DNA of 19,967 nucleotides from Deltaproteobacteria bacterium (lineage in GTDB: Bacteria > Desulfobacterota > Desulfobacteria > Desulfobacterales > JAUVGT01). The notes beneath the pieces were generated by a model, which searched no databases, was not told the DNA's origin, and saw only the letters and a program-made list of their open reading frames with translations. Of this stretch, positions 5,006 through 15,626 are shown piece by piece. The translations under genes and the position numbers were made by a program. The stretch spans positions 1 through 19,967 of the forward strand of contig JAUVGT010000027.1 in assembly GCA_030593645.1 (NCBI GenBank), in the 5' to 3' direction. How positions within the stretch are numbered: position 1 is the first letter of the stretch; every line of letters begins with the position of its first letter.

Positions 5006-5151
5006 TAGAACCTATCTCAAAAATATAGATTAGAGTTGAGGGCAAGGCACAGGTCAGTTAAAAAGCGGAGCATACACGTAGTATGTGAGTATTTTTCACT
5101 GACCTGTAACGCAGCCATCGAGCCTAAGATGTATTTTTGAGATAGGTTCTA
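5006..5151. repeat. ~146-bp element bounded by 18-bp terminal inverted repeats (tagaacctatctcaaaaa / tttttgagataggttcta) with an internal 10-bp hairpin. It is either MITE-like or a structured-RNA element.
   Basis: 5006-5023 is the exact reverse complement of 5134-5151. The internal stem acaggtcagt (5049-5058) pairs with actgacctgt (5098-5107). The right TIR overlaps the amidohydrolase stop codon. Confidence 0.5.
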
Positions 5152-6729
5152 CTTTTGATATACAATTTCGCCCTGAACAATAGTCATTTCAGTTTCTACT
5201 GACGTCCAGAGTTCAGGAGAAAGTTCAAACAGGTTTTGGCTGAAGACTGTCATATCGGCCCGTTTACCGGGTGCAATAGTGCCCAGGATATCGGACCTGC
5301 CGGAGGATATGTAGGGCTGAAGCGTGTATGGCGGAATACTTTCCGCGAGTGTGAGGTTTTGTTCAGGGAACCATCCCCCCGTTGGTTCTCCTTCAGGGTT
5401 TTTTCTTATAACCGCGGCCTGGAGACCCAGAACAGGATCGTTTGGTTCAACAGGTGCATCCGATCCAAACTGCAGGGGGATACCGGTCTCAAGCAGTGAT
5501 TTCCAGGCATAGGCGTATCTGCAGCGATCAGTTCCCAATAATTTAGTCGCGATGGGTATGTCTGTGGGAACAAAAACGGGTTGGACCGATGCAACCACAC
5601 CCAAATTGTGAAACAGATCCAGGTCTTTTGGCCGGTACAGCTGAACATGTTCAATACGGTCCGGTCTCTTGCCGGGGAGTTCATCTCTGGCAGAGGATAT
5701 CGCATTTAACGCATTTGTTAGCGCTTTATCACCAATTGCGTGAATGGCCACGTTCCATCCTTCATGATATGCCAGCCGTACATTATCCAGAAGTTCTTCA
5801 GGTGACAGGAAAGGTAAGCCGGTATAACCGGGCTCATCCTCATAAGGATCATGCAAAAGAGCGGTGCGTGAGCCAAGGGCACCATCCGCAAACATTTTTG
5901 CGTGGCCGGTCCAAAGGTATTCACTACCGCCACCGGGTTTAATATTTCGCTCTCCGGCCGTTTTAAGTTCATCCGGCGGTAATGTGTGGTATATTCGAAT
6001 CTTGAGTTTCTCTTCTTTTTCCAGAGAACGAAATGCTTCCCATTCATCAAGGGATTCCATCGTATTTACACCGGTCAATCCCATGCGAAATGCCTCTTTT
6101 TGGGCAAACATGGCTGCCTGTTTTCTCTCTTCAAGACTGGTTGAAGGAACATGGTCGTCGATCAGGTATTTTGCTTCACGGATGATTCCTGTGGGTTTCC
6201 CGGATACCGGGTTTTTATCAATTTTGCCGCCCGGCGGATCCGGTGTTTCTGCGGTGATACCGGCAATTTCCAGTGCCATAGTATTGACCCAAATGGAATG
6301 TGTACAGACCCGGGCCATCATTACCGGATTTTCAGGGGCGATTTTGTCAAGATCTTCTCTGTTTGGTTCACGGTTTTCATCCCAAAGGTTCTGGTTCCAG
6401 TTGCGGCCGATGATCCATTCCCCTCTTTTTCTGGACGATACAGTTTCTTTGATTTTTTTCAGACAGGCATCAATGGATGATAAATTTCTAAGGTCGATAT
6501 TTTGAAGTGAAAAACCGAAACTGATAAAATGACAGTGTGAATCCACAAAACCCGGAGTGATTAAACGCCCGGGTAAATCGATTTCAATACTTCCAGGGTT
6601 TGATGCACGTTTAACATCTTTGTTGCTTCCGATTGCCTGGATTAAACCGTTACGGACAGCAACAGCTTCAGCCCACGGGAGTTTTGCGTCACCTGTAAAA
6701 ATGTGTGATGAGTAAATTGTAAGATCCAT
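5149..6729 (-). CDS. Amidohydrolase-3 family metal-dependent hydrolase (YtcJ-like). The likely start is the MDLTIYS Met at 6729; the longer ORF start at 6762 lacks an RBS.
   Basis: HxH metal-binding motif GFVDSHCHF near the N-terminus, and amidohydrolase-like His/Asp motifs later (IHAIGD, GSDAPV). RBS ggaagga is 6 nt before the 6729 ATG. Confidence 0.8.
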   Translation of the reverse strand: MDLTIYSSHIFTGDAKLPWAEAVAVRNGLIQAIGSNKDVKRASNPGSIEIDLPGRLITPGFVDSHCHFISFGFSLQNIDLRNLSSIDACLKKIKETVSSRKRGEWIIGRNWNQNLWDENREPNREDLDKIAPENPVMMARVCTHSIWVNTMALEIAGITAETPDPPGGKIDKNPVSGKPTGIIREAKYLIDDHVPSTSLEERKQAAMFAQKEAFRMGLTGVNTMESLDEWEAFRSLEKEEKLKIRIYHTLPPDELKTAGERNIKPGGGSEYLWTGHAKMFADGALGSRTALLHDPYEDEPGYTGLPFLSPEELLDNVRLAYHEGWNVAIHAIGDKALTNALNAISSARDELPGKRPDRIEHVQLYRPKDLDLFHNLGVVASVQPVFVPTDIPIATKLLGTDRCRYAYAWKSLLETGIPLQFGSDAPVEPNDPVLGLQAAVIRKNPEGEPTGGWFPEQNLTLAESIPPYTLQPYISSGRSDILGTIAPGKRADMTVFSQNLFELSPELWTSVETEMTIVQGEIVYQK

Positions 6730-6835
6730 TTTTATTCCTTCCCAAAGTTGATGGTATCGCATAAGCTATAGACACATTTTAATAATAGAGCAAGTATTTT
6801 CATATGAATGAATTGCTGGGTATACAGGCTATTAC

Positions 6836-6866
6836 TGGATTGTTTCCAATAAAAATGGTATATAAT
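6836..6866 (+). promoter_or_regulatory. Candidate extended -10 promoter (TGgTATATAAT) upstream of the CCA-like nucleotidyltransferase gene.
   Basis: tggtatataat at 6856-6866. No good -35. Lies ~55 nt upstream of the ATG at 6920. Confidence 0.3.
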
Positions 6867-6919
6867 CTTGTTAGAAGTTATGATCTATTGAAATAAAATA
6901 AAGGCGTGTCATTAGAAAA

Positions 6920-8260
6920 ATGAGCGAAGAAAAAAAAGCGAACACTATCATTGACTGTCTCTGTCAAGAAGGATGGGAGGCTTATATCGCGGGCGGAGCC
7001 GCCCGTGATATTATTAACGGTGAAATACCGAATGATTATGATATTGTAACCAATGCTCCTTATGAAGTCATTACCGAATTATTCGCGAAAAGGAAGATGT
7101 CCCTTGTGGGCGCGAGCTTTAAGGTGTGCATTATAGATGGTATTGAAGTCGCGACTTACAGGAAAGATAACTATTTATTAACACCAGGGAGTGTCCCCGG
7201 TGTAGTGGAGGCGAAAACCATACAGGAAGATTTGGCAAGGCGGGATTTAACCATAAACTCAATGGCATTTTGCCCATACAATGGCGACATCGTTGATGAG
7301 TATGGCGGCGTTGAAGATCTGAAAAACCGGATAATCAGATTGACCGGGAATCCTGGTGAAAGAATAATGGAAGATCCGTGCCGTATATTAAGGGCCTGCA
7401 GATTTCTTGCAAAGCTCGAAGGAAGTTTTGATCCCGCGACCTTTGAGGCGCTTAGAAAAAACAGCTTTCTTGTAATGGAAAGGGTTGCACCTGAACGGAT
7501 CAGACTCGAAATTCTAAAAACCATGCAGTATCATAAGCCCAGTATATTTTTTGACGCGCTCCATGAAATCGGCGCGTTAAAATATTTATCCCCGGGTTTT
7601 GAGTTGTGCTATCACCATGATGGCGGTGTGTATCATGGGGAAACTATAGACGAACACATTAAGATGGTTGGGGATTCTCTTTCAAAGCGAAAACCATTAC
7701 TGAGGCTTGCCGGTTTTTGGCATGATCATGGTAAACCGGCTGCTGCGGAATATCGAAATGGGAATGTTTCATTTATACGGCATGCTGTTCTGGGGACAGA
7801 AATCGTGGATCAGGAACTGATAAAATTAAAATTCAGCGTACGGGAAACAGAATTTGTAAAATCAATTGTCAGACACCATATGCGAAATATACATCCCGAT
7901 GACAAACCCAAAACAGTCCGCAAAATGTTAAAAAAGCTAAATGATGACGGTGTTAACTGGAAAGATTGGCTGCAAATCAAGATTGCGGATACAAAAGGGA
8001 ACCTGCAAAAGAAAAACTTAAACCGGAATGAAGTAAAGAAAATTGTATTTAAGATACGTAATGAACTTAAACCGGATTCCAAACAGGCGGTATTGAGTAT
8101 TAAAGATCTGGCTGTGAACGGTGAAGATGTCATGCGTACTCTACACATTAAAGCCGGTCCAAAGGTAGGAAAAGTGTTAAACAAGCTCCTGGACCATGTT
8201 CTGGATACTCCGGAACTCAATACGCGTGAAAAATTAATGAAGTTAATTCCGGAAGGCTGA
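6920..8260 (+). CDS. tRNA nucleotidyltransferase / poly(A) polymerase family (CCA-adding-enzyme-like) with a C-terminal HD phosphohydrolase domain.
   Basis: Pol-beta NTase head GGAARDIINGEIPNDYDIVT, tRNA-NT family RRD motif (DLARRDLTINSMA), and HD-domain metal ligands (FWHDHGKP ... HHMRNIHPDD). Confidence 0.8.
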   Translation: MSEEKKANTIIDCLCQEGWEAYIAGGAARDIINGEIPNDYDIVTNAPYEVITELFAKRKMSLVGASFKVCIIDGIEVATYRKDNYLLTPGSVPGVVEAKTIQEDLARRDLTINSMAFCPYNGDIVDEYGGVEDLKNRIIRLTGNPGERIMEDPCRILRACRFLAKLEGSFDPATFEALRKNSFLVMERVAPERIRLEILKTMQYHKPSIFFDALHEIGALKYLSPGFELCYHHDGGVYHGETIDEHIKMVGDSLSKRKPLLRLAGFWHDHGKPAAAEYRNGNVSFIRHAVLGTEIVDQELIKLKFSVRETEFVKSIVRHHMRNIHPDDKPKTVRKMLKKLNDDGVNWKDWLQIKIADTKGNLQKKNLNRNEVKKIVFKIRNELKPDSKQAVLSIKDLAVNGEDVMRTLHIKAGPKVGKVLNKLLDHVLDTPELNTREKLMKLIPEG

Positions 8261-8377
8261 TCATCACTAATCGGGAGACCATCATCATTAAATAACAATA
8301 TAGCTCAGGATGGGTTATGGTTGATCAGAAATGTATACTCTGGATGTTCAGTCAATCGTGAAAACAGGAAAAAGATA

Positions 8378-9298
8378 ATGAGCAGCATATTTCAGAAATT
8401 GGAAAATAAAAAACTTCTGGAACACCATCCCTCGTTTATCAGCACCGGTGTTCATTATGAGGTCGTAATGGGCTCAGTGGCTTACGGTGTTTCAAGTGAT
8501 GCTTCAGATATGGACGTATATGGGTTTTGTATTCCCCCGAAGGATTTTGTTTTTCCTCATTTGCGAGGAGAGATTCCCGGATTCAGCAAGCCGGGTTCAT
8601 CATTTGAGCAATTTCAGCAGCATCATATTTATGATCAAACGGCATGCGGCGGTAGAGGCAGGGAATATGATATAACCATATATTCGATTATTAAGTACTT
8701 TCGATTATGCATGGAGAATAATCCGAATATGATCGACAGTCTTTTTGTTCCAAGACGCTGCATATTGTACTCTACTCAAACCGGAGAATTGGTTAGAGAA
8801 AACAGGCACCTTTTTCTTCACAAAGGCGCGTGGCATAAATTTAAAGGATATGCCTTTTCTCAGGTACATAAGATGAATACAAAGCAGCCGATTGGAAAGA
8901 GAAAAAAAATTATTGAACAGTTCGGATATGATGTAAAGTTCGCATACCATGTGGTTCGGCTGTTAAACGAAGTTGAGCAGATTTTAACGGAGCACGATCT
9001 TGACCTGGAGAAAAACCGGGAGCAGCTTAAAGCGATACGGCGGGGAGAGTGGAGCAGTGAAAAAATAAAAGAATATTTCGCGTCCAAGGAAAGAGAGCTT
9101 GAATCCCTGTATACTTCAAGCAAACTTTCTCCAATACCCAAAGAATCGGAAATTCAAAACCTTTTACTTAACTGTCTTGAGCACCACTATGGAAGCCTTG
9201 AAGCCTGTATTATTCGGGAAGATGCGGCGATTAAAGCGTTAAAGGATATTGACAAAATTCTGGATCGTTTGGATATCAAAACTAAAATTAAAAGCTGA
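8378..9298 (+). CDS. Pol-beta superfamily nucleotidyltransferase, predicted-NTase (PF10127/RlaP-like) family, copy 1. The ORF track begins at TTG 8321; the ATG at 8378 has an RBS.
   Basis: GS-x9-DxD signature MGSVAYGVSSDASDMDVYGF. ~300 aa with an alpha-helical C-terminal half. It is a paralog of the next gene. RBS aggaaa precedes ATG 8378. Confidence 0.6.
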   Translation: MSSIFQKLENKKLLEHHPSFISTGVHYEVVMGSVAYGVSSDASDMDVYGFCIPPKDFVFPHLRGEIPGFSKPGSSFEQFQQHHIYDQTACGGRGREYDITIYSIIKYFRLCMENNPNMIDSLFVPRRCILYSTQTGELVRENRHLFLHKGAWHKFKGYAFSQVHKMNTKQPIGKRKKIIEQFGYDVKFAYHVVRLLNEVEQILTEHDLDLEKNREQLKAIRRGEWSSEKIKEYFASKERELESLYTSSKLSPIPKESEIQNLLLNCLEHHYGSLEACIIREDAAIKALKDIDKILDRLDIKTKIKS

Positions 9299-9380
9299 TT
9301 TAAGATGAACAGAGCCAATACCGACTCCGAATTTCGATTGAGCGCGTTATTATTTCCCCTTGAGGGGACAGGGTGATACT

Positions 9381-10145
9381 ATGAACGTAAAAGAGAAAAT
9401 ACTAACCGGTTTGCGCCGGATAGAAAAGAAGTATAACGTCAAAATTATCTATGCCTGTGAATCGGGCAGCCGGGCCTGGGGATTTCCTTCAGAAGACAGT
9501 GATTACGATGTCCGCTTTATCTATGTCCATCCAAAGGACTGGTATTTAAGTATCGTAGAAAAGCGTGATGTAATCGAGATCCCGGTTGATAACGAACTTG
9601 ATATAAACGGGTGGGATATCCGGAAGTCGCTTTCACTTTTGAGAAAATCCAATGCCCCGATTCTTGAGTGGCTATCCTCACCAATCGTATATATGAAGGA
9701 CGTTAAAATTCTGGCCCCATTGCGAACATTATCTGGAAAAGCATTTTTGCCTGAATCCGTATGCCATCATTACCTGTCCATGGCTAAGAAGATGCTTGAA
9801 AAGATCGAGAATTCTTCAAAGGTCAGAATCAAAACCTACTTGTACGCCATACGGCCTGTGCTTTGCTGCATGTGGATTATCGAGAAGGGAACCCAGCCCC
9901 CTATGCTGTTCGGTACCTTAAAAAAATTATATTTGCCAAAAGGGAAAAGCAGGGAAGAAGTTGACAAACTGCTCATCCAGAAGGCGAAAAGTCTGGAATC
10001 AGATTTAATCGACCATTCCATTGTACTTGATGAGTTCCTTTCAGTAGAAACACAAAAAATAACTGACAATATTCCCAAAAATCCCTTAAAATGTGATGTC
10101 AACAATTTTGACAGTGTGTTTAAAGAGATCCTGGAAAGTGCCTGA
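9381..10145 (+). CDS. Pol-beta superfamily nucleotidyltransferase, predicted-NTase (PF10127/RlaP-like) family, copy 2. The ORF track begins at TTG 9360.
   Basis: ESGSRAWGFPSEDSDYDVRFIYV (hG[GS]...[DE]xD) NTase signature. Conserved ...AIRPVLCCMWI...PP..F block. Confidence 0.65.
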   Translation: MNVKEKILTGLRRIEKKYNVKIIYACESGSRAWGFPSEDSDYDVRFIYVHPKDWYLSIVEKRDVIEIPVDNELDINGWDIRKSLSLLRKSNAPILEWLSSPIVYMKDVKILAPLRTLSGKAFLPESVCHHYLSMAKKMLEKIENSSKVRIKTYLYAIRPVLCCMWIIEKGTQPPMLFGTLKKLYLPKGKSREEVDKLLIQKAKSLESDLIDHSIVLDEFLSVETQKITDNIPKNPLKCDVNNFDSVFKEILESA

Positions 10146-10367
10146 TCTTAGGGGGCGCGCAAAAATAACTTCATATTTTTTACATCCCGGATTCAGGCCG
10201 GCTTTGCCCGATCCTCAATTGCAAAATTCTCGAAATAGCTCACTTGGATACATAATTTTGTTTTTACAAAAAAATATCCGGGCTGCTGACACGGGGTTGT
10301 CACTCAACTGTTGTATCAAAATACATTGCTCTAAAAACAATAAAATACTATCGCGGGGAGTTTTATC

Positions 10368-11117
10368 ATGGGGAAAAAAATAATCGATGTAAATGAAGCA
10401 GATATCGAAGAAACCGGATTTTTTTGCTATATGAGTAAGAAAAAAACCATAGGGTATAAAAACAAACTGGAATGGCTGAAATCAAGATTTTCAGAAGGGA
10501 TGAAACTAAAAATTCTTGGGGAAGGGAAAAGGGGCGTGATTGAATATATACCCGGAGAACATGCATGGAGGCCAGTCAAAGCAGAGGGCTATATGTTTAT
10601 TCACTGTCTCTGGGTAGTTGGTAAAAGCAAGGGAAACGGGTACGCAAAAGAATTATTGAATGAATGTATAAAAGATGCCAGGAAACTGAAAATGAAAGGC
10701 GTGGCCATGGTCACAAGTGAAAAGGTTTGGCTTATGAGTAAGAAGTTTCTGGTATTGCAGGGGTTTGAATCGGTCGATAAAGCGCCACCCTCTTTTGAAT
10801 TGATGGTAAATAAATTTGATAATTCAAACTTGCCTTCTTTTACCGGAAACTGGGAGAAAAAAGCAGAAAGATTTGGTTCCGGTCTCACTGTTATCCAAAC
10901 AGATCAATGCCCGTACATCGATGACGCGGTAAAACTTGTTTTGGAAGTTGGAAAAGAAATCGATTCCGAATGCAGCATCTGTAAGCTTGAAAGCAGTCAG
11001 GATGTCCGTGATTTAACCCCTTCAGCTTATGGTACATTTAGTATTGTATATAATGGTAGATTGTTGAGTTATCATTATTTAACACGAAAGGATTTATTGA
11101 AGCAAATAGGTAAATAG
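10368..11117 (+). CDS. GNAT-fold acetyltransferase-like protein with a C-terminal extension (YoaP-like).
   Basis: N-terminal region FFCYMSKKKTIGYKNKLEWLK...GYMFIHCLWVVGKSKGNGYAKELLNECIKDA resembles GNAT/YoaP acetyl-CoA-binding cores. RBS gggag precedes the ATG. Confidence 0.5.
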   Translation: MGKKIIDVNEADIEETGFFCYMSKKKTIGYKNKLEWLKSRFSEGMKLKILGEGKRGVIEYIPGEHAWRPVKAEGYMFIHCLWVVGKSKGNGYAKELLNECIKDARKLKMKGVAMVTSEKVWLMSKKFLVLQGFESVDKAPPSFELMVNKFDNSNLPSFTGNWEKKAERFGSGLTVIQTDQCPYIDDAVKLVLEVGKEIDSECSICKLESSQDVRDLTPSAYGTFSIVYNGRLLSYHYLTRKDLLKQIGK

Positions 11118-11122
11118 GTTTG

Positions 11123-11455
11123 CTATTTTGCCTGCCACATTAAATGATCCAGATCTTTTTCCATATTGTTTTCAGGTTCCGATATGGGGCCGGCCCATTC
11201 CCCTTTGTATTCTTCAACGCTGACCGGCTCCTTGTATTCAGACAGGCTCAACTGGGGGACACAAAGTTTTGAATTTACAAATAAAATACGAGGTTTGCCA
11301 CTAATCTGAGATAACGAATTGTCAGTTCGCCTATACCAGTAATTTCCGGCTTCCTGGGGTTTTTCCAATGTCCAGCAGATATTTGATTTTTCCCATGGTA
11401 ATTTCATAATAAACCCCGTTTTGAGGAAAAGCGTAAGAAGCAATCTTCTTTTCAT
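11123..11455 (-). CDS. Hypothetical protein (110 aa; may instead start at the internal MKLPWEK Met).
   Basis: Open frame only. No recognisable motifs. The first ATG lies inside the loop of a 14-bp perfect hairpin. Confidence 0.35.
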   Translation of the reverse strand: MKRRLLLTLFLKTGFIMKLPWEKSNICWTLEKPQEAGNYWYRRTDNSLSQISGKPRILFVNSKLCVPQLSLSEYKEPVSVEEYKGEWAGPISEPENNMEKDLDHLMWQAK

Positions 11456-11478: not shown

Positions 11479-11757
11479 GCAGGAGTGGTTCGGTTATTTA
11501 ATAACCGTAATTGAATCATATATCACCGAAATGTGGAAAACAATCCGGGAAACTACTCGATTTTGACTAAGTAGAACTACGCAGTTTTTACAGACACTGT
11601 GTATGTAAAAAACGATGTTATTATAAAAACATAATAATAACATAGACTTACAAAATATTTATAAAATAAATAGCATTCAGTGCGGGTATCGTCTACAAAA
11701 TATTTTATACTATTTTAATGACGGTCTATCCGTATCACCGTAAATTTTAATCTGTCT

Positions 11758-12183
11758 CTACTCATCATGGGGGGACACGGATTTTCTGAGTTTTTTTGTT
11801 TTACTTCTACGCTTTTTGGATTCTAAAATCCTCTTTTTTGATGCATAAGATTGTTTCGTTTTTTTTCTTTTTTTCGGTTTTTCTGCTGCCTGTTTTATTA
11901 ATTCGACAAGCCGATCAACAGCATCCTGCCGATTATGGGTCTGGGTTCGAAAACGCCGGGCATTAATGATCAGGATACCGTTATCGGTAATCCGGTGCCC
12001 CGAAAGCGTTTTTAAACGGGCACGAACATCATCCGGAAGTGATGGTGAATTTTTTACATCAAAACGGAGCTGAACCGCGGAGGAGACCTTGTTAACGTTC
12101 TGGCCGCCCGGTCCGGAAGCACGGATAAAATCGAATTTTAGTTCATTCTCATCAATTGAAATTTCTGCTGAAATGTTAATCAT
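11758..12183 (-). CDS. arfB: ArfB (YaeJ)-type alternative ribosome-rescue factor / peptidyl-tRNA hydrolase.
   Basis: GGQ catalytic motif in SGPGGQNVNKVSSAVQLRF, followed by a lysine/arginine-rich C-terminal tail (KPKKRKKTKQ...KKRRSKTKKLRK) that is diagnostic of ArfB. 141 aa. Confidence 0.85.
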   Translation of the reverse strand: MINISAEISIDENELKFDFIRASGPGGQNVNKVSSAVQLRFDVKNSPSLPDDVRARLKTLSGHRITDNGILIINARRFRTQTHNRQDAVDRLVELIKQAAEKPKKRKKTKQSYASKKRILESKKRRSKTKKLRKSVSPHDE

Positions 12184-12235: not shown

Positions 12236-12721
12236 TTAATCGAGAAACACAACATTACTTCCTCGTATTTCACCATTGACTGCTACCCTGTACCAATGCC
12301 TTAAAATCAGGGTTTTATGATCAGGGTGACGGATCCATCCACGAACGTACAATGCGGGATCCCGGGTCATACGATTCCAACTCCAGGACTTTGCCTTGGG
12401 ATGTTTTCTGATATAACGACGTTTTTCGTTTTCAGTCAATCCCGCTGCAAGCCTGGTTCTTTCATTGATATCTTTGACCCTGGAGGCAAAAACCTGAACC
12501 GTGTAGACTGTAGTGCCGCCAACAATATATGCTTCCTGTGCCCGGTGAGGCTTATTGCCTGCTCTTACATTTGAAAGCATTATCGGTTCACCGCCTTTTG
12601 GGCGCAGGATCATCGCTTCCTTAACACTGAACCCTTCGACAGGAACAAAAAACCATTCCCCCTGCCGTTTGAATCCTTTGTTTTTACGGCGATGAAGCTG
12701 TCGTTTTTTAACATGATGCAT
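12236..12721 (-). CDS. Hypothetical basic protein (161 aa), co-oriented between rtcB and arfB.
   Basis: Intact ORF with a very basic N-terminus (MHHVKKRQLHRRKNKGFKRQ). No motif I can name. Confidence 0.5.
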   Translation of the reverse strand: MHHVKKRQLHRRKNKGFKRQGEWFFVPVEGFSVKEAMILRPKGGEPIMLSNVRAGNKPHRAQEAYIVGGTTVYTVQVFASRVKDINERTRLAAGLTENEKRRYIRKHPKAKSWSWNRMTRDPALYVRGWIRHPDHKTLILRHWYRVAVNGEIRGSNVVFLD

Positions 12722-12748: not shown

Positions 12749-13135
12749 TTATAATGCCTGCTTGGCAGCAAGTACGTTGCTGACTGTTCGGCGCGGTACC
12801 TGGGCCGCAAAAAATTCTCTTTCATCATGGCCGCAAAGCGTTTTAATGACTTCAGGATCCGGAGAAGTTCTGGCATTAAAGACTTTTGCCATTAGTAAAA
12901 GGTGGCGGTCTTTGGCCTGAACATCAGGCACAATAATATCTACTGTACCGCGAGTCCGGATGTCAAATATTTCTCCTTTTTTATCATTGATTACATCAAC
13001 GACATTATTACTGTTTTTATTATTTGCAGACCGGTCTGCAAGCCCGGAAAACATAACCCGTGCACCGATCATTTCAAATTTGTTTTTAATTATTTCTTTA
13101 TCCAATTGTTCACCTCTTTCTATAAGCGGCTCCAA
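12749..13135 (-). CDS. Hypothetical protein (128 aa, TTG start in the ORF track), co-oriented downstream of rtcB.
   Basis: Open frame in operon context with a 27-nt gap to the next gene. No recognisable motif. The start codon is uncertain. Confidence 0.4.
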   Translation of the reverse strand: MEPLIERGEQLDKEIIKNKFEMIGARVMFSGLADRSANNKNSNNVVDVINDKKGEIFDIRTRGTVDIIVPDVQAKDRHLLLMAKVFNARTSPDPEVIKTLCGHDEREFFAAQVPRRTVSNVLAAKQAL

Positions 13136-13309: not shown

Positions 13310-14515
13310 TTATCCCTTCACAACGCCAAGCGGTCTAAGCTTCACAATTGGCTTGATCAGATCAAGTTCTGATTTAATAACCGCATCAATATCTTTATAT
13401 GCCTGGGGGGCTTCACCCAGATCGTATAATCCTTTGGTTTTACCTCTTTTTACTTTTTTCCATCTGTCGTATACGATTCCATCCATGGCCCGGTCACATT
13501 CTTCAGGTGTCAGGTTCTGGGTGGCCTGGTTTCTTCCCATTACTCGTCCGGCACCATGGGAACAGGACATAAAGGATTCCGCGGTACCCAGTCCTTCAAC
13601 AATATATGAAAATGAGCCCATGGAACCGGGGATAATTCCGGTCTCGTTCACTTTTGCTGACGTTGCGCCTTTTCTGTGCACCCAGACATTCTCACCAAAA
13701 TGGTTTTCGAGGGCCGCGTAATTATGGTGAATATTAATGGGCGCATTGAAAGTCACATTGCTGAAAATAGAGGAGAATGCTTCCATAAAGCGGTTCATGA
13801 TTCTCCGCCTGTTTTCTTTTGCATAGGATAGCGCGAAATTCATGTCTCGAATATAGCCCTGTCCTTCCCTGCTGTTAACCGGAAGAAATGCCAGATCTTT
13901 ATTCGGAATAACGGAGTAATATTTGCGGTTCAATTCAATGGCAACTGAATGATGATGTCTTGCGATGACATTTCCAAGATGCCTTGACCCTGAATGAATC
14001 ATCAGCCATACAAATTCATCATCCCCATCCTGGATCTCAATAAAATGGTTTCCACCTCCAAGAGTTCCAAGGTTTCGGCTCGCCAGATCGCCCACATGGT
14101 CTGTAAACCACCCCGTTTCATGGAATTCTTCAATATCTTCATCAATGCCTTCCCATGTTTGCGGTTTTTTATGAGCGTGTCCTTCTCCGCACGGAACAAA
14201 CGTTTTCACGAGGGTTACGATTTCACGCAGCTGTTCTTTTGTGACTCCGGAAGCCAGAATATCCGTCTTAACCGCTCCCATACCGCATCCAATATCAACT
14301 CCCACGGCATTCGGGATAACCGCGTTTTTGCATCCAATCACTCCTCCGATAGGCATTCCATAACCCTGATGGCAGTCGGGCATTAGAGCCACGTGGCGAA
14401 ATACAACCGGATGCATGGCAAGATCAGAGGCCTGAGCCCATGCCCTTTCTTCGATATCTTTGCACCATGATTTGATCGGCACTTTAAATTTATCTTCATT
14501 TTTTACCCATTCCAT
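13310..14515 (-). CDS. rtcB: RNA-splicing ligase RtcB (3'-phosphate/5'-OH RNA ligase). The preferred start is the MEWVKNED Met, which has a ggaggag RBS; the longest ORF would start at 14560.
   Basis: Hallmarks MPDCHQGYGMPIGG, GVDIGCGM, GGGNHFIEIQ, HSGSRHLGN, HHNY and CSHGAGR are all present. Confidence 0.92.
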   Translation of the reverse strand: MEWVKNEDKFKVPIKSWCKDIEERAWAQASDLAMHPVVFRHVALMPDCHQGYGMPIGGVIGCKNAVIPNAVGVDIGCGMGAVKTDILASGVTKEQLREIVTLVKTFVPCGEGHAHKKPQTWEGIDEDIEEFHETGWFTDHVGDLASRNLGTLGGGNHFIEIQDGDDEFVWLMIHSGSRHLGNVIARHHHSVAIELNRKYYSVIPNKDLAFLPVNSREGQGYIRDMNFALSYAKENRRRIMNRFMEAFSSIFSNVTFNAPINIHHNYAALENHFGENVWVHRKGATSAKVNETGIIPGSMGSFSYIVEGLGTAESFMSCSHGAGRVMGRNQATQNLTPEECDRAMDGIVYDRWKKVKRGKTKGLYDLGEAPQAYKDIDAVIKSELDLIKPIVKLRPLGVVKG

Positions 14516-14588
14516 GGTATTTCTCCTCCACGAGTATTTTCTGTAAAACAGATAAGGCATACCTGCTCTATGCCCGCCATGAAGGTTT

Positions 14589-15626
14589 TTACTTCATAGT
14601 GTATGGTTGACCATTGATTTTAATTTCACAGGCGTTTTCATCATACTGGTCAATGGAAACATCAATATCAAGGAACTGCTTGAGTACTTCAATATTGGTT
14701 AACGTATGCCTCGACGGGGTAAGGGTTCTGAATTTACCTCCCCCGGCCAAAGCCATTGGAATTAAAAGCTGATCAGCCAGGTAGCCGGCAACCGGCACTT
14801 TCGAGTTTAGATATTTCTGAACAAGCGTTACTGTTTTGTTTGCAACTTTTTCAGCAGTAACACCTCTTTCCCCGAATCCTGTAAACATTTCAGTGATGTT
14901 TTCGCTTTCAATTTCAACGGTCAGGATGTTCCCGGGTCCCATGGAACCCGTTACATCTTCTGCAATAAGGTCCTCCCGGGCCATATTCAGCTTGTCTTTC
15001 AATATTTTTAGTTCTCTGTTGGCGATGCTAATCGGCAGTTTTGCCGTTTTAGCAATGGCCCTTTGATTGATAACCCTGCCTCTTGCCGATAGATCTATTT
15101 TATTTAAGCTCCGGGTCGGTTTGACATTGACTGTGAACCGTCCTCCGCCCGCGGGATAGAAACCGGGCCGTTCAAGGACGGACGTGACTTCCGGACCCAT
15201 CTTATTGATCAGCGGCAAAAAAGCCTTCACTAGAAAATCAAAGGGCGGGGCATATGGGTTATGTGTGCCACCCTCCAGAACAACTCTTGAAGAATTTTTC
15301 GCAAGTAGCAGGGACGGGAGTATCGTTTGAAGTACAAGCGTACAGCTCCCGGCAGTACCGACCGAGAAAAGATAATCTCCCGCGTCAACAGTAACAGGTG
15401 AAAAAAATAGTTCTCCTGATCCGATGCTGTTGCCTTTAATTTCAGCTTTTCCGATTTCAGAGGCTGCGTTCGCCGCGGTCAGATGCTGTCTCATCAGACC
15501 CGGTTTTCTTCGGCCGGCCCGGATATTTTTAATCAAAAAAGGTTTCCCGGTCACAAGTGACATAGCCAGTGATGTCCGCAGGACCTGTCCGCCTCCTTCT
15601 CCAAATGAACCGTCAATATGTATCAT
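14589..15626 (-). CDS. rtcA: RNA 3'-terminal phosphate cyclase RtcA.
   Basis: The N-terminus IHIDGSFGEGGGQVLRTSLAMSLVTGKPFLIKNIRAGRRKPGLMRQHL is near-identical in pattern to E. coli RtcA. Also GSCTLVLQTILP and YLADQLLIPMALAGGG. RBS gagga. Confidence 0.92.
   Translation of the reverse strand: MIHIDGSFGEGGGQVLRTSLAMSLVTGKPFLIKNIRAGRRKPGLMRQHLTAANAASEIGKAEIKGNSIGSGELFFSPVTVDAGDYLFSVGTAGSCTLVLQTILPSLLLAKNSSRVVLEGGTHNPYAPPFDFLVKAFLPLINKMGPEVTSVLERPGFYPAGGGRFTVNVKPTRSLNKIDLSARGRVINQRAIAKTAKLPISIANRELKILKDKLNMAREDLIAEDVTGSMGPGNILTVEIESENITEMFTGFGERGVTAEKVANKTVTLVQKYLNSKVPVAGYLADQLLIPMALAGGGKFRTLTPSRHTLTNIEVLKQFLDIDVSIDQYDENACEIKINGQPYTMK

Follow-up and report, generated by a model that had tools for sequence, protein, structure and literature searches.

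RtcA and RtcB belong to protein families that heal and seal broken RNAs, and members of the ArfB family hydrolyze peptidyl-tRNA on ribosomes whose A-site mRNA channel is empty, as was established by the ribosome-complex structures 4V95 and 6YSS. This study deals with a gene of the latter family, arfB, which is located downstream of rtcB and rtcA in a contig of a deltaproteobacterium (JAUVGT010000027.1, assembly GCA_030593645.1); the whole stretch of 19,967 nucleotides (nt) that was analyzed is referred to as the window. The closest described system is PrfH-RtcB, in which a stalled ribosome is released and the broken RNA is then religated (PMC9304027, PMC9223846). Burroughs and Aravind set ArfB in contrast to the repair-coupled PrfH (PMC6514570). 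In Salmonella, RtcR is activated by damaged tRNAs with a terminal 2',3'-cyclic phosphate (PMC7790460, PMC10159003). An arfB-rtcB operon is not reported in the titles and abstracts of those papers, among the literature searched, that mention both RtcB and ArfB. According to the reading favored here, to which we assign a probability of about one half, ArfB would be the co-regulated terminal gene of an RtcR/sigma-54 RNA-repair operon and a recent and rare, lineage-specific addition to it.

The arfB gene, the rtc cluster and OrfX

The predicted product of the window gene is an ordinary, canonical ArfB with intact functional motifs, because it scored 188.3 bits against the NCBIfam ArfB equivalog NF006718 (cutoff 100) and 91.9 bits against Pfam RF-1, could be aligned over residues 1-136 with E. 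coli YaeJ (4v95_AY/6yss; residues 1-135), basic tail included, and retained the GGQ motif (GPGGQ at residues 24-28) as well as the tail residues R106, T109, K123, K130 and R133, which were invariant in a 12-sequence alignment. The tail is rich in Lys/Arg. Thus, all features of the family were present, i.e. an RF-1 domain with GGQ, a score above the equivalog threshold, a length of about 140 amino acids (aa) and a basic C-terminal helix, and no codon-recognition domain occurs. An identity as PrfH was rejected, since the PrfH model TIGR03072 yielded only 35.6 bits (cutoff 166.65) in a match confined to the GGQ segment. A preliminary description of this DNA had assigned the gene to the short ArfB/YaeJ type with GGQ domain and basic tail, and not to PrfH, and had placed it in one transcription unit with RtcB and RtcA; these scores confirm the former statement. 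rtcB and rtcA are located upstream on the same strand (Table 1), and the sequence signals described below are compatible with the latter statement.

On the minus strand, the promoter, a leader with a tRNA-like element, Band7, RtcA, RtcB, the two halves of a gene here named OrfX and ArfB follow each other in this order. All six open reading frames (ORFs) have the same orientation and follow a single consensus sigma-54 promoter, with rtcR on the opposite side, which supports the favored reading. On the minus strand of the window, TGGC-N8-TGC was matched only by the promoter sequence TGGCACATGCGTTGC, and both promoter and leader are also conserved in a relative (L173). A divergent RtcR, an upstream sigma-54 promoter, rtcA and rtcB, the characteristics of an RtcR-regulated rtcBA operon, were all found. 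The start of rtcB is probably Met16 at 14515, which results in a protein of 401 aa and matches the length of its homologues (401 aa, 65-78% identical; the named ones are from Desulfobacterales-type organisms).

A consensus scan detected no terminator-like site between rtcB and arfB on the minus strand, and no sigma-70-like site in the AT-rich spacer of 52 nt between OrfX and arfB or just upstream of arfB. The terminator-like element behind arfB has a weak stem (-6.5 kcal/mol), but it is the sole clean intergenic hairpin with U-run 3' of RtcB on this strand; other candidates, which were obtained downstream of the leader in a relaxed hairpin-plus-U-run scan, were weak and intragenic. Judged by these sequence signals alone, co-transcription of arfB with the rtc genes is plausible and is the simplest reading.

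Table 1. Features of the rtc cluster and its surroundings in the window.
Feature	Position	Strand	Description
rtcR	18022..19644	plus, divergent	sigma-54 enhancer-binding activator with RtcR/CARF N-terminal domain; Pfam RtcR PF06956 277.5 bits, Sigma54_activat PF00158 164.4 bits
sigma-54 (-24/-12) promoter TGGCACATGCGTTGC	17766-17752	minus	consensus TGGC-N8-TGC; predicted
operon leader	16899-17751	minus	~850 nt, between sigma-54 promoter and Band7
tRNA-like element	17506..17570	minus	in leader; Rfam tRNA 44.4 bits
Band7/SPFH-family gene	15783..16898	minus	first ORF of cluster; Pfam Band_7 122.4 bits
rtcA	14589..15626	minus	RNA 3'-terminal phosphate cyclase; NCBIfam NF003246 422.9 bits (cutoff 352); Pfam RTC and RTC_insert
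rtcB	13310..14560	minus	RNA ligase; Pfam RtcB 358.7 bits
OrfX, N-terminal half	12749..13135	minus	listed start TTG 13135; ends at in-frame TAA 12751-12749
OrfX, C-terminal half	12236..12721	minus	161 aa, ATG start; motifs RRKNKGFxRQGEWFF, KPH, RHPDHKT, VVFLD
arfB	11758..12183	minus	141-aa ATG-to-TAG ORF; alternative ribosome-rescue peptidyl-tRNA hydrolase; GGQ catalytic domain, linker, basic C-terminal helix
terminator-like element	11607..11644	minus	10-bp AU-rich hairpin then U6, ~115 nt after arfB stop; predicted

ArfB is not adjacent to RtcB. The 1,126 nt between both genes are occupied by two ORFs, which were missing from the preliminary description and together represent a single conserved gene that is split in two, OrfX (~270 aa). 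Most of the 171 homologues have 260-280 aa and span both window ORFs; no match was obtained for OrfX in Pfam, NCBIfam, PADLOC or PHROGs, and its fold was confidently predicted and is without a counterpart in the PDB. The N-terminal half likely starts at TTG 13105, which follows a Shine-Dalgarno-like motif (AGGTGA). The in-frame TAA stands in the interdomain linker ('KQAL*PELAVWSQKMHH') at a position where the homologues have Lys, and an ATG follows nine codons further on. An alternative genetic code behind this TAA was rejected, as TAA and TAG terminate the neighboring genes normally.

Among the relatives, the OrfX-ArfB adjacency is kept only in a metagenome contig of 1.4 kb (L082), whose ArfB is 81% identical to that of the window. 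Its OrfX (82% and 89% identical in the two halves) retains the linker Lys, and its own in-frame stops, TAG and TAA, stand at two different sites of this linker of nine codons. Ratios of nonsynonymous to synonymous substitution rates (dN/dS) between window and L082 were 0.14 for the N-terminal half of OrfX, 0.10 for the C-terminal half and 0.22 for arfB, with dS from 0.6 to 0.8. According to these ratios, purifying selection acts on the OrfX halves and ArfB or did so until very recently.

Full-length OrfX genes were found in the gene orders RtcR<->Ro60-OrfX-RtcA-RtcB (L085/L086) and RtcR<->Ro60-OrfX-YrlA-ORF-RtcA (L089), and furthermore as OrfX-YrlA-RtcA close to a contig end (L088), where RtcR was not called. 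A Ro60/TROVE gene and YrlA adjoin OrfX in L085, L088 and L089, unlike in the window, in which no Ro60/TROVE ORF was found and the YrlA model of Rfam gave no match at E<=1. Judging by these gene orders, OrfX is a recurrent component of RtcR/Ro/YrlA/RtcA(/RtcB) operons. Because this recurrent member is located just upstream of arfB, ArfB most probably lies inside the accessory zone of the operon and not past its end.

Occurrence of the linkage in relatives and alternative explanations

Several results from relatives, together with some signals in the spacers, weigh against a co-regulated ArfB. Compared with the window were the ArfB loci of the best 80 of at least 600 stretches from species-representative genomes (49-65% identity) and of the best 80 of at least 600 from metagenomes; nearer relatives may fall outside these sets, and L082 was not among the matches of the metagenome scan. 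The 1.8 Mb of flanks of these 160 loci were searched by tblastn with RtcB, RtcA, RlaP, OrfX, Band7, the CCA-enzyme and the GNAT protein of the window, with RtcB of L129 and L085, and with archease. RtcB, RtcA and archease were not found at 159 of the 160 ArfB loci, and a conserved ArfB-RtcB partnership was therefore rejected, L129 being the sole positive. The closer ArfB relatives L170 (72% identity) and L171 (70%) were not linked to Rtc genes either, and the 12-sequence alignment contained no sequence feature that sets Rtc-linked ArfBs apart from unlinked ones. In published comparative genomics, the neighborhood of ArfB was conserved only for a pseudouridine synthase (PMC6514570). Housekeeping synteny common to the window and the other ArfB loci was looked for as well, and none was found.

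The same direction is indicated by the relatives of the other genes. L173 has the core RtcR<->leader-Band7-RtcA-...-RtcB in common with the window (RtcB 73-75%, Band7 76% and RtcA 66% identical), but L173 and L174, the only close RtcB relatives in which sequence far downstream is covered, are without ArfB after RtcB; in L173, zf_Tbcl, several unknown proteins and an RNase-T-like gene occur instead. Since L173 has these other accessory genes at the position after RtcB, the comparison shows the operon tail downstream of RtcB as an apparent variable slot for added genes, a point in favor of ArfB as an addition to the operon. In a further relative with RtcR<->RtcA-RtcB (L172), the contig stops about 420 nt past RtcB. 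ArfB was not found at the other full-length OrfX loci (L085/L086, L088, L089) or after the OrfX of L206, which is 66% identical. No co-occurrence was observed on viral contigs with 17 RtcB loci and 14 ArfB-like loci. Within the window, the spacer between rtcB and OrfX (175-204 nt) is structured (folding z = -3.0), and a perfect but isolated TATAAT occurs in it at 13224-13219 without a -35 element, so that an internal promoter is possible between rtcB and OrfX. In L082, the spacer between OrfX and ArfB contains a GC-rich hairpin of 13 bp without U-tract, which is missing in the window.

Among plasmids, 69 records with arfB were obtained, and on the two true cyanobacterial plasmids that were inspected, pSYSM and pNOS7524.01, no RtcB occurred near arfB. 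On pSYSM of Synechocystis PCC 6803 (L207, 7001-8210), a toxin gene of the PIN family and the gene of a HicB antitoxin come directly after arfB, which is another case of arfB beside an RNA-cleaving conflict system.

The single positive locus, L129, belongs to a soil metagenome contig of high GC content (Ga0318514_10001411) and comprises archease (5577-6056), RtcB (6073-7503) and ArfB (7517-7945; 166.6 bits against the NCBIfam model) on one strand with gaps of 16 and 13 nt. BON-domain ORFs are located upstream of this group. Since identity to the window proteins amounts to no more than 53-55% for ArfB and 29% for RtcB, L129 represents an independent juxtaposition. The single RtcB in 1.8 Mb of flanks is close to the number expected by chance within +/-10 kb, according to our own estimate, which assumes ~0.1 rtcB per Mb. 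Direct same-strand adjacency of RtcB and ArfB was observed once, in comparison to ~0.03 expected per 160 loci; this ~30-fold excess, which is based on a rough estimate of our own assuming ~0.4 rtcB per genome of 4,000 genes, is suggestive but not conclusive.

From these comparisons, the linkage of ArfB to rtc genes is limited to the lineage of the window and L082 plus one independent case, and it is thus apparently rare and lineage-specific. Because Rtc genes are missing at nearly all ArfB loci and L173/L174 are without ArfB, the coupling would be a rare lineage-specific addition and not a conserved partnership of the PrfH kind. Two findings had been named in the preliminary description as speaking against its claim. 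A separate promoter and terminator isolating arfB were looked for in the sequence, and none was predicted between OrfX and arfB. Absent synteny in relatives, in contrast, is largely what the 159 loci without Rtc genes and the unlinked L173/L174 and L170/L171 reveal. The observation itself holds, i.e. the ArfB type, its co-directional position at the 3' end of the rtc cluster and a second case in L129, whereas the conserved partnership has to be given up.

It is possible, though we rather doubt it, that arfB is a housekeeping gene with its own expression that is merely located downstream of the rtc cluster and is not functionally coupled to it. The canonical sequence of the window ArfB, which is indistinguishable from that of unlinked ArfBs, would fit such a chance neighbor, as would the rarity of Rtc genes at ArfB loci, the near-chance frequency of RtcB in the flanks and the lack of ArfB in the close RtcB relatives with downstream sequence. 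In addition, ArfB has been called an 'institutionalized' stand-alone pathway (PMC6514570), and the AT-rich spacer of 52 nt could conceal a weak promoter. However, neither a promoter nor a terminator was predicted that would isolate arfB, its upstream neighbor at a distance of 52 nt is a member of an rtc-operon family and stays next to ArfB in L082, and the same-strand adjacency of RtcB and ArfB recurs in L129 above the estimated expectation. These points argue for the co-regulated terminal gene.

An unlikely variant is that the partner of ArfB is the Ro/YrlA-associated OrfX and not RtcB/RtcA, and that both genes landed in the rtc tail as an accessory cassette. Their adjacency is the sole part of the arrangement seen in L082, a gap of 175-204 nt separates RtcB from OrfX, and genes for the C-terminal domain of OrfX or for ArfB occur in mobile contexts, namely with a RepB primase (L083), an integrase (L171) and the PIN toxin with HicB of pSYSM. 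Nevertheless, the other OrfX loci examined (L085/L086, L088, L089, L206) are without ArfB, L129 joins ArfB directly to RtcB without any OrfX, and RtcB may well lie upstream in L082, because this contig comprises only 1.4 kb. It is very improbable that the region 3' of RtcB is degenerating and that arfB is an inconsequential remnant in a decaying operon tail. The in-frame TAA of the window OrfX and the two other in-frame stops in L082 would point in this direction, but three coding regions with the low dN/dS ratios given above are under purifying selection, which makes decay unlikely. Moreover, frameshifts did not occur, the stops are confined to the 9-codon interdomain linker, an ATG follows the stop in the window, and every family-invariant residue is retained in ArfB.

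Leader RNA and neighboring genes

Beside arfB, the less expected features of the window are OrfX, with its unmatched fold and its split yet selected reading frame, and the conserved tRNA-like leader RNA. In the tRNA-like element, the D, anticodon and T arms are intact and the acceptor stem is shortened to 3 bp; ARAGORN did not report a tRNA at this site. The element is kept in the leader of L173 (6608-6671), where a compensatory exchange of A-U to G-C occurs in the anticodon stem and the loop is different. YrlA RNA and a genuine tRNA in the window were rejected, since this truncated tRNA-like element was the sole match.

The element apparently lies within a structure of ~200 nt that is closed by CCGCCGGGC. 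Near 17440-17405, a GGCC hairpin with U5 might serve as an attenuator or form the 3' end of a small RNA. Directly 5' of the Band7 start codon, an imperfect hairpin of ~150 nt is located at 16903-17061, which matched only plant miRNA-precursor models and these weakly (27-29 bits, far under the thresholds).

The Band7 gene has the same position in L173. L172 is otherwise without Band7, and a remnant of 25 aa, which shares 92% identity with the C-terminal end of the window Band7, is located at 5127-5201 just upstream of rtcA. Because this remnant persists, the sequence suggests that Band7 was recently deleted from the L172 operon. In L173, ~20 tRNA genes are arrayed after the rtc operon (17911-21206) with an HNH nuclease gene within the array, and a match of 113 nt to the tRNA model in the operon tail (12344-12456) is possibly a tRNA with an insertion.

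A plus-strand cluster at 6920-11117 converges on arfB and encodes a nucleotidyltransferase of the CCA-adding/poly(A)-polymerase type with HD domain, two RlaP proteins (PF10127) and a GNAT-YoaP protein. RlaP is the 'RNA-ligase-associated Pol-beta' family (PMC12776372). Since the rtc cluster adjoins these CCA-adding/HD and RlaP nucleotidyltransferases, the entire stretch from 6.9 to 19.6 kb is a predicted RNA-repair island. Beyond the terminator-like hairpin 3' of arfB, a candidate ORF of 110 aa (11123-11455, minus strand) did not match any family of Pfam, NCBIfam, PADLOC or PHROGs; in an identical Logan contig (L001), a shorter version of 94 aa was called.

Proposed function and comparison with known systems

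If ArfB is the co-regulated terminal gene of the operon, the following sequence of events can be proposed. By analogy with Salmonella, tRNAs with 2',3'-cyclic phosphate ends would activate the RtcR of the window, which would then fire the sigma-54 promoter, whose activity is suggested by its sequence. The transcript would comprise the leader, Band7, RtcA, RtcB, the OrfX halves and ArfB and would end near 11644-11607. RtcA and RtcB would heal and reseal broken tRNA or rRNA. On cleaved mRNAs, the extra ArfB would occupy the empty mRNA channel of the ribosomes with its basic tail and hydrolyze the peptidyl-tRNA, and the ribosomes of this lineage would thereby be freed independently of transfer-messenger RNA (tmRNA). 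Such a scheme would mirror the rescue and repair by PrfH-RtcB with a generic non-stop rescue factor.

If arfB is truly under the control of RtcR, a step of ribosome rescue without tmRNA is built into the Rtc RNA-damage response of some bacteria. The far more widespread ArfB family would then join PrfH-RtcB in the 'rescue then repair' logic, and a natural system would be available to ask which stalled-ribosome species build up after cleavage of tRNA or mRNA. Current understanding would change only incrementally, given the rarity of the association and the fact that rescue and repair is already a known concept. A more far-reaching idea, which we regard as speculative and improbable, is that RNA-repair operons repeatedly recruit a stop-codon-independent peptidyl-tRNA hydrolase, i.e. 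PrfH in some lineages and canonical ArfB in at least two others (window and L129). The ArfB of the window might then work with OrfX, whose two domains are maintained by purifying selection despite the stops in the linker, which would mean a selected gene split or programmed read-through, and both might form an unrecognized ribosome-directed arm of the Rtc response.

Like PrfH-RtcB2 of E. coli ATCC 25922 (PMC9304027, PMC9223846), the window encodes a release-factor-derived GGQ peptidyl-tRNA hydrolase together with an RtcB ligase. However, PrfH possesses a recognition domain for the colicin-E3-damaged decoding center (PMC9304027, PMC9223846), whereas the window factor is a canonical ArfB. Furthermore, the PrfH gene is tightly paired with that of a dedicated RtcB subtype, and this two-gene unit is conserved wherever it is present (PMC9304027, PMC9223846), whereas the linkage in the window is sporadic. 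Here, the genes are 1.1 kb apart in an RtcR/sigma-54 unit, and RtcB is not of the PrfH-associated subtype (TIGR03073, 163 bits; cutoff 271.8). Thus, a PrfH-type factor, the PrfH-associated RtcB subtype and a tight conserved adjacency, which define a PrfH-RtcB module, were all not found in the window. CgPrfH of Capnocytophaga gingivalis, from the tailed PrfH subfamily, comes closer in function, since it is linked to RtcB, inserts a basic C-terminal helix into the empty mRNA channel and is ArfB-like on non-stop ribosomes; it still has the PrfH fold with the recognition domain (PMC11741408), whereas the window protein is a true ArfB.

Family, length and motifs of the window protein are those of E. 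coli ArfB/YaeJ (4V95, 6YSS), with which the alignment is full-length, but canonical arfB genes are without RNA-repair neighbors (PMC6514570), unlike the arfB of the window. The cluster as a whole resembles rsr-yrlBA-rtcBA of Salmonella (PMC7790460) in its divergent RtcR, its sigma-54 promoter, RtcA and RtcB, and an operon non-coding RNA with a tRNA-like domain; unlike the Salmonella operon, it is without a Ro/Rsr gene or an Rfam YrlA match and has Band7, the split OrfX and ArfB instead. The C12orf65-MJ1316 proteins (PMC6514570) are eukaryotic domain fusions without RtcB, whereas the window contains a bacterial gene cluster, but the physical linkage of an ArfB-class hydrolase with a module for 2',3'-cyclic phosphate RNA ends is common to both.
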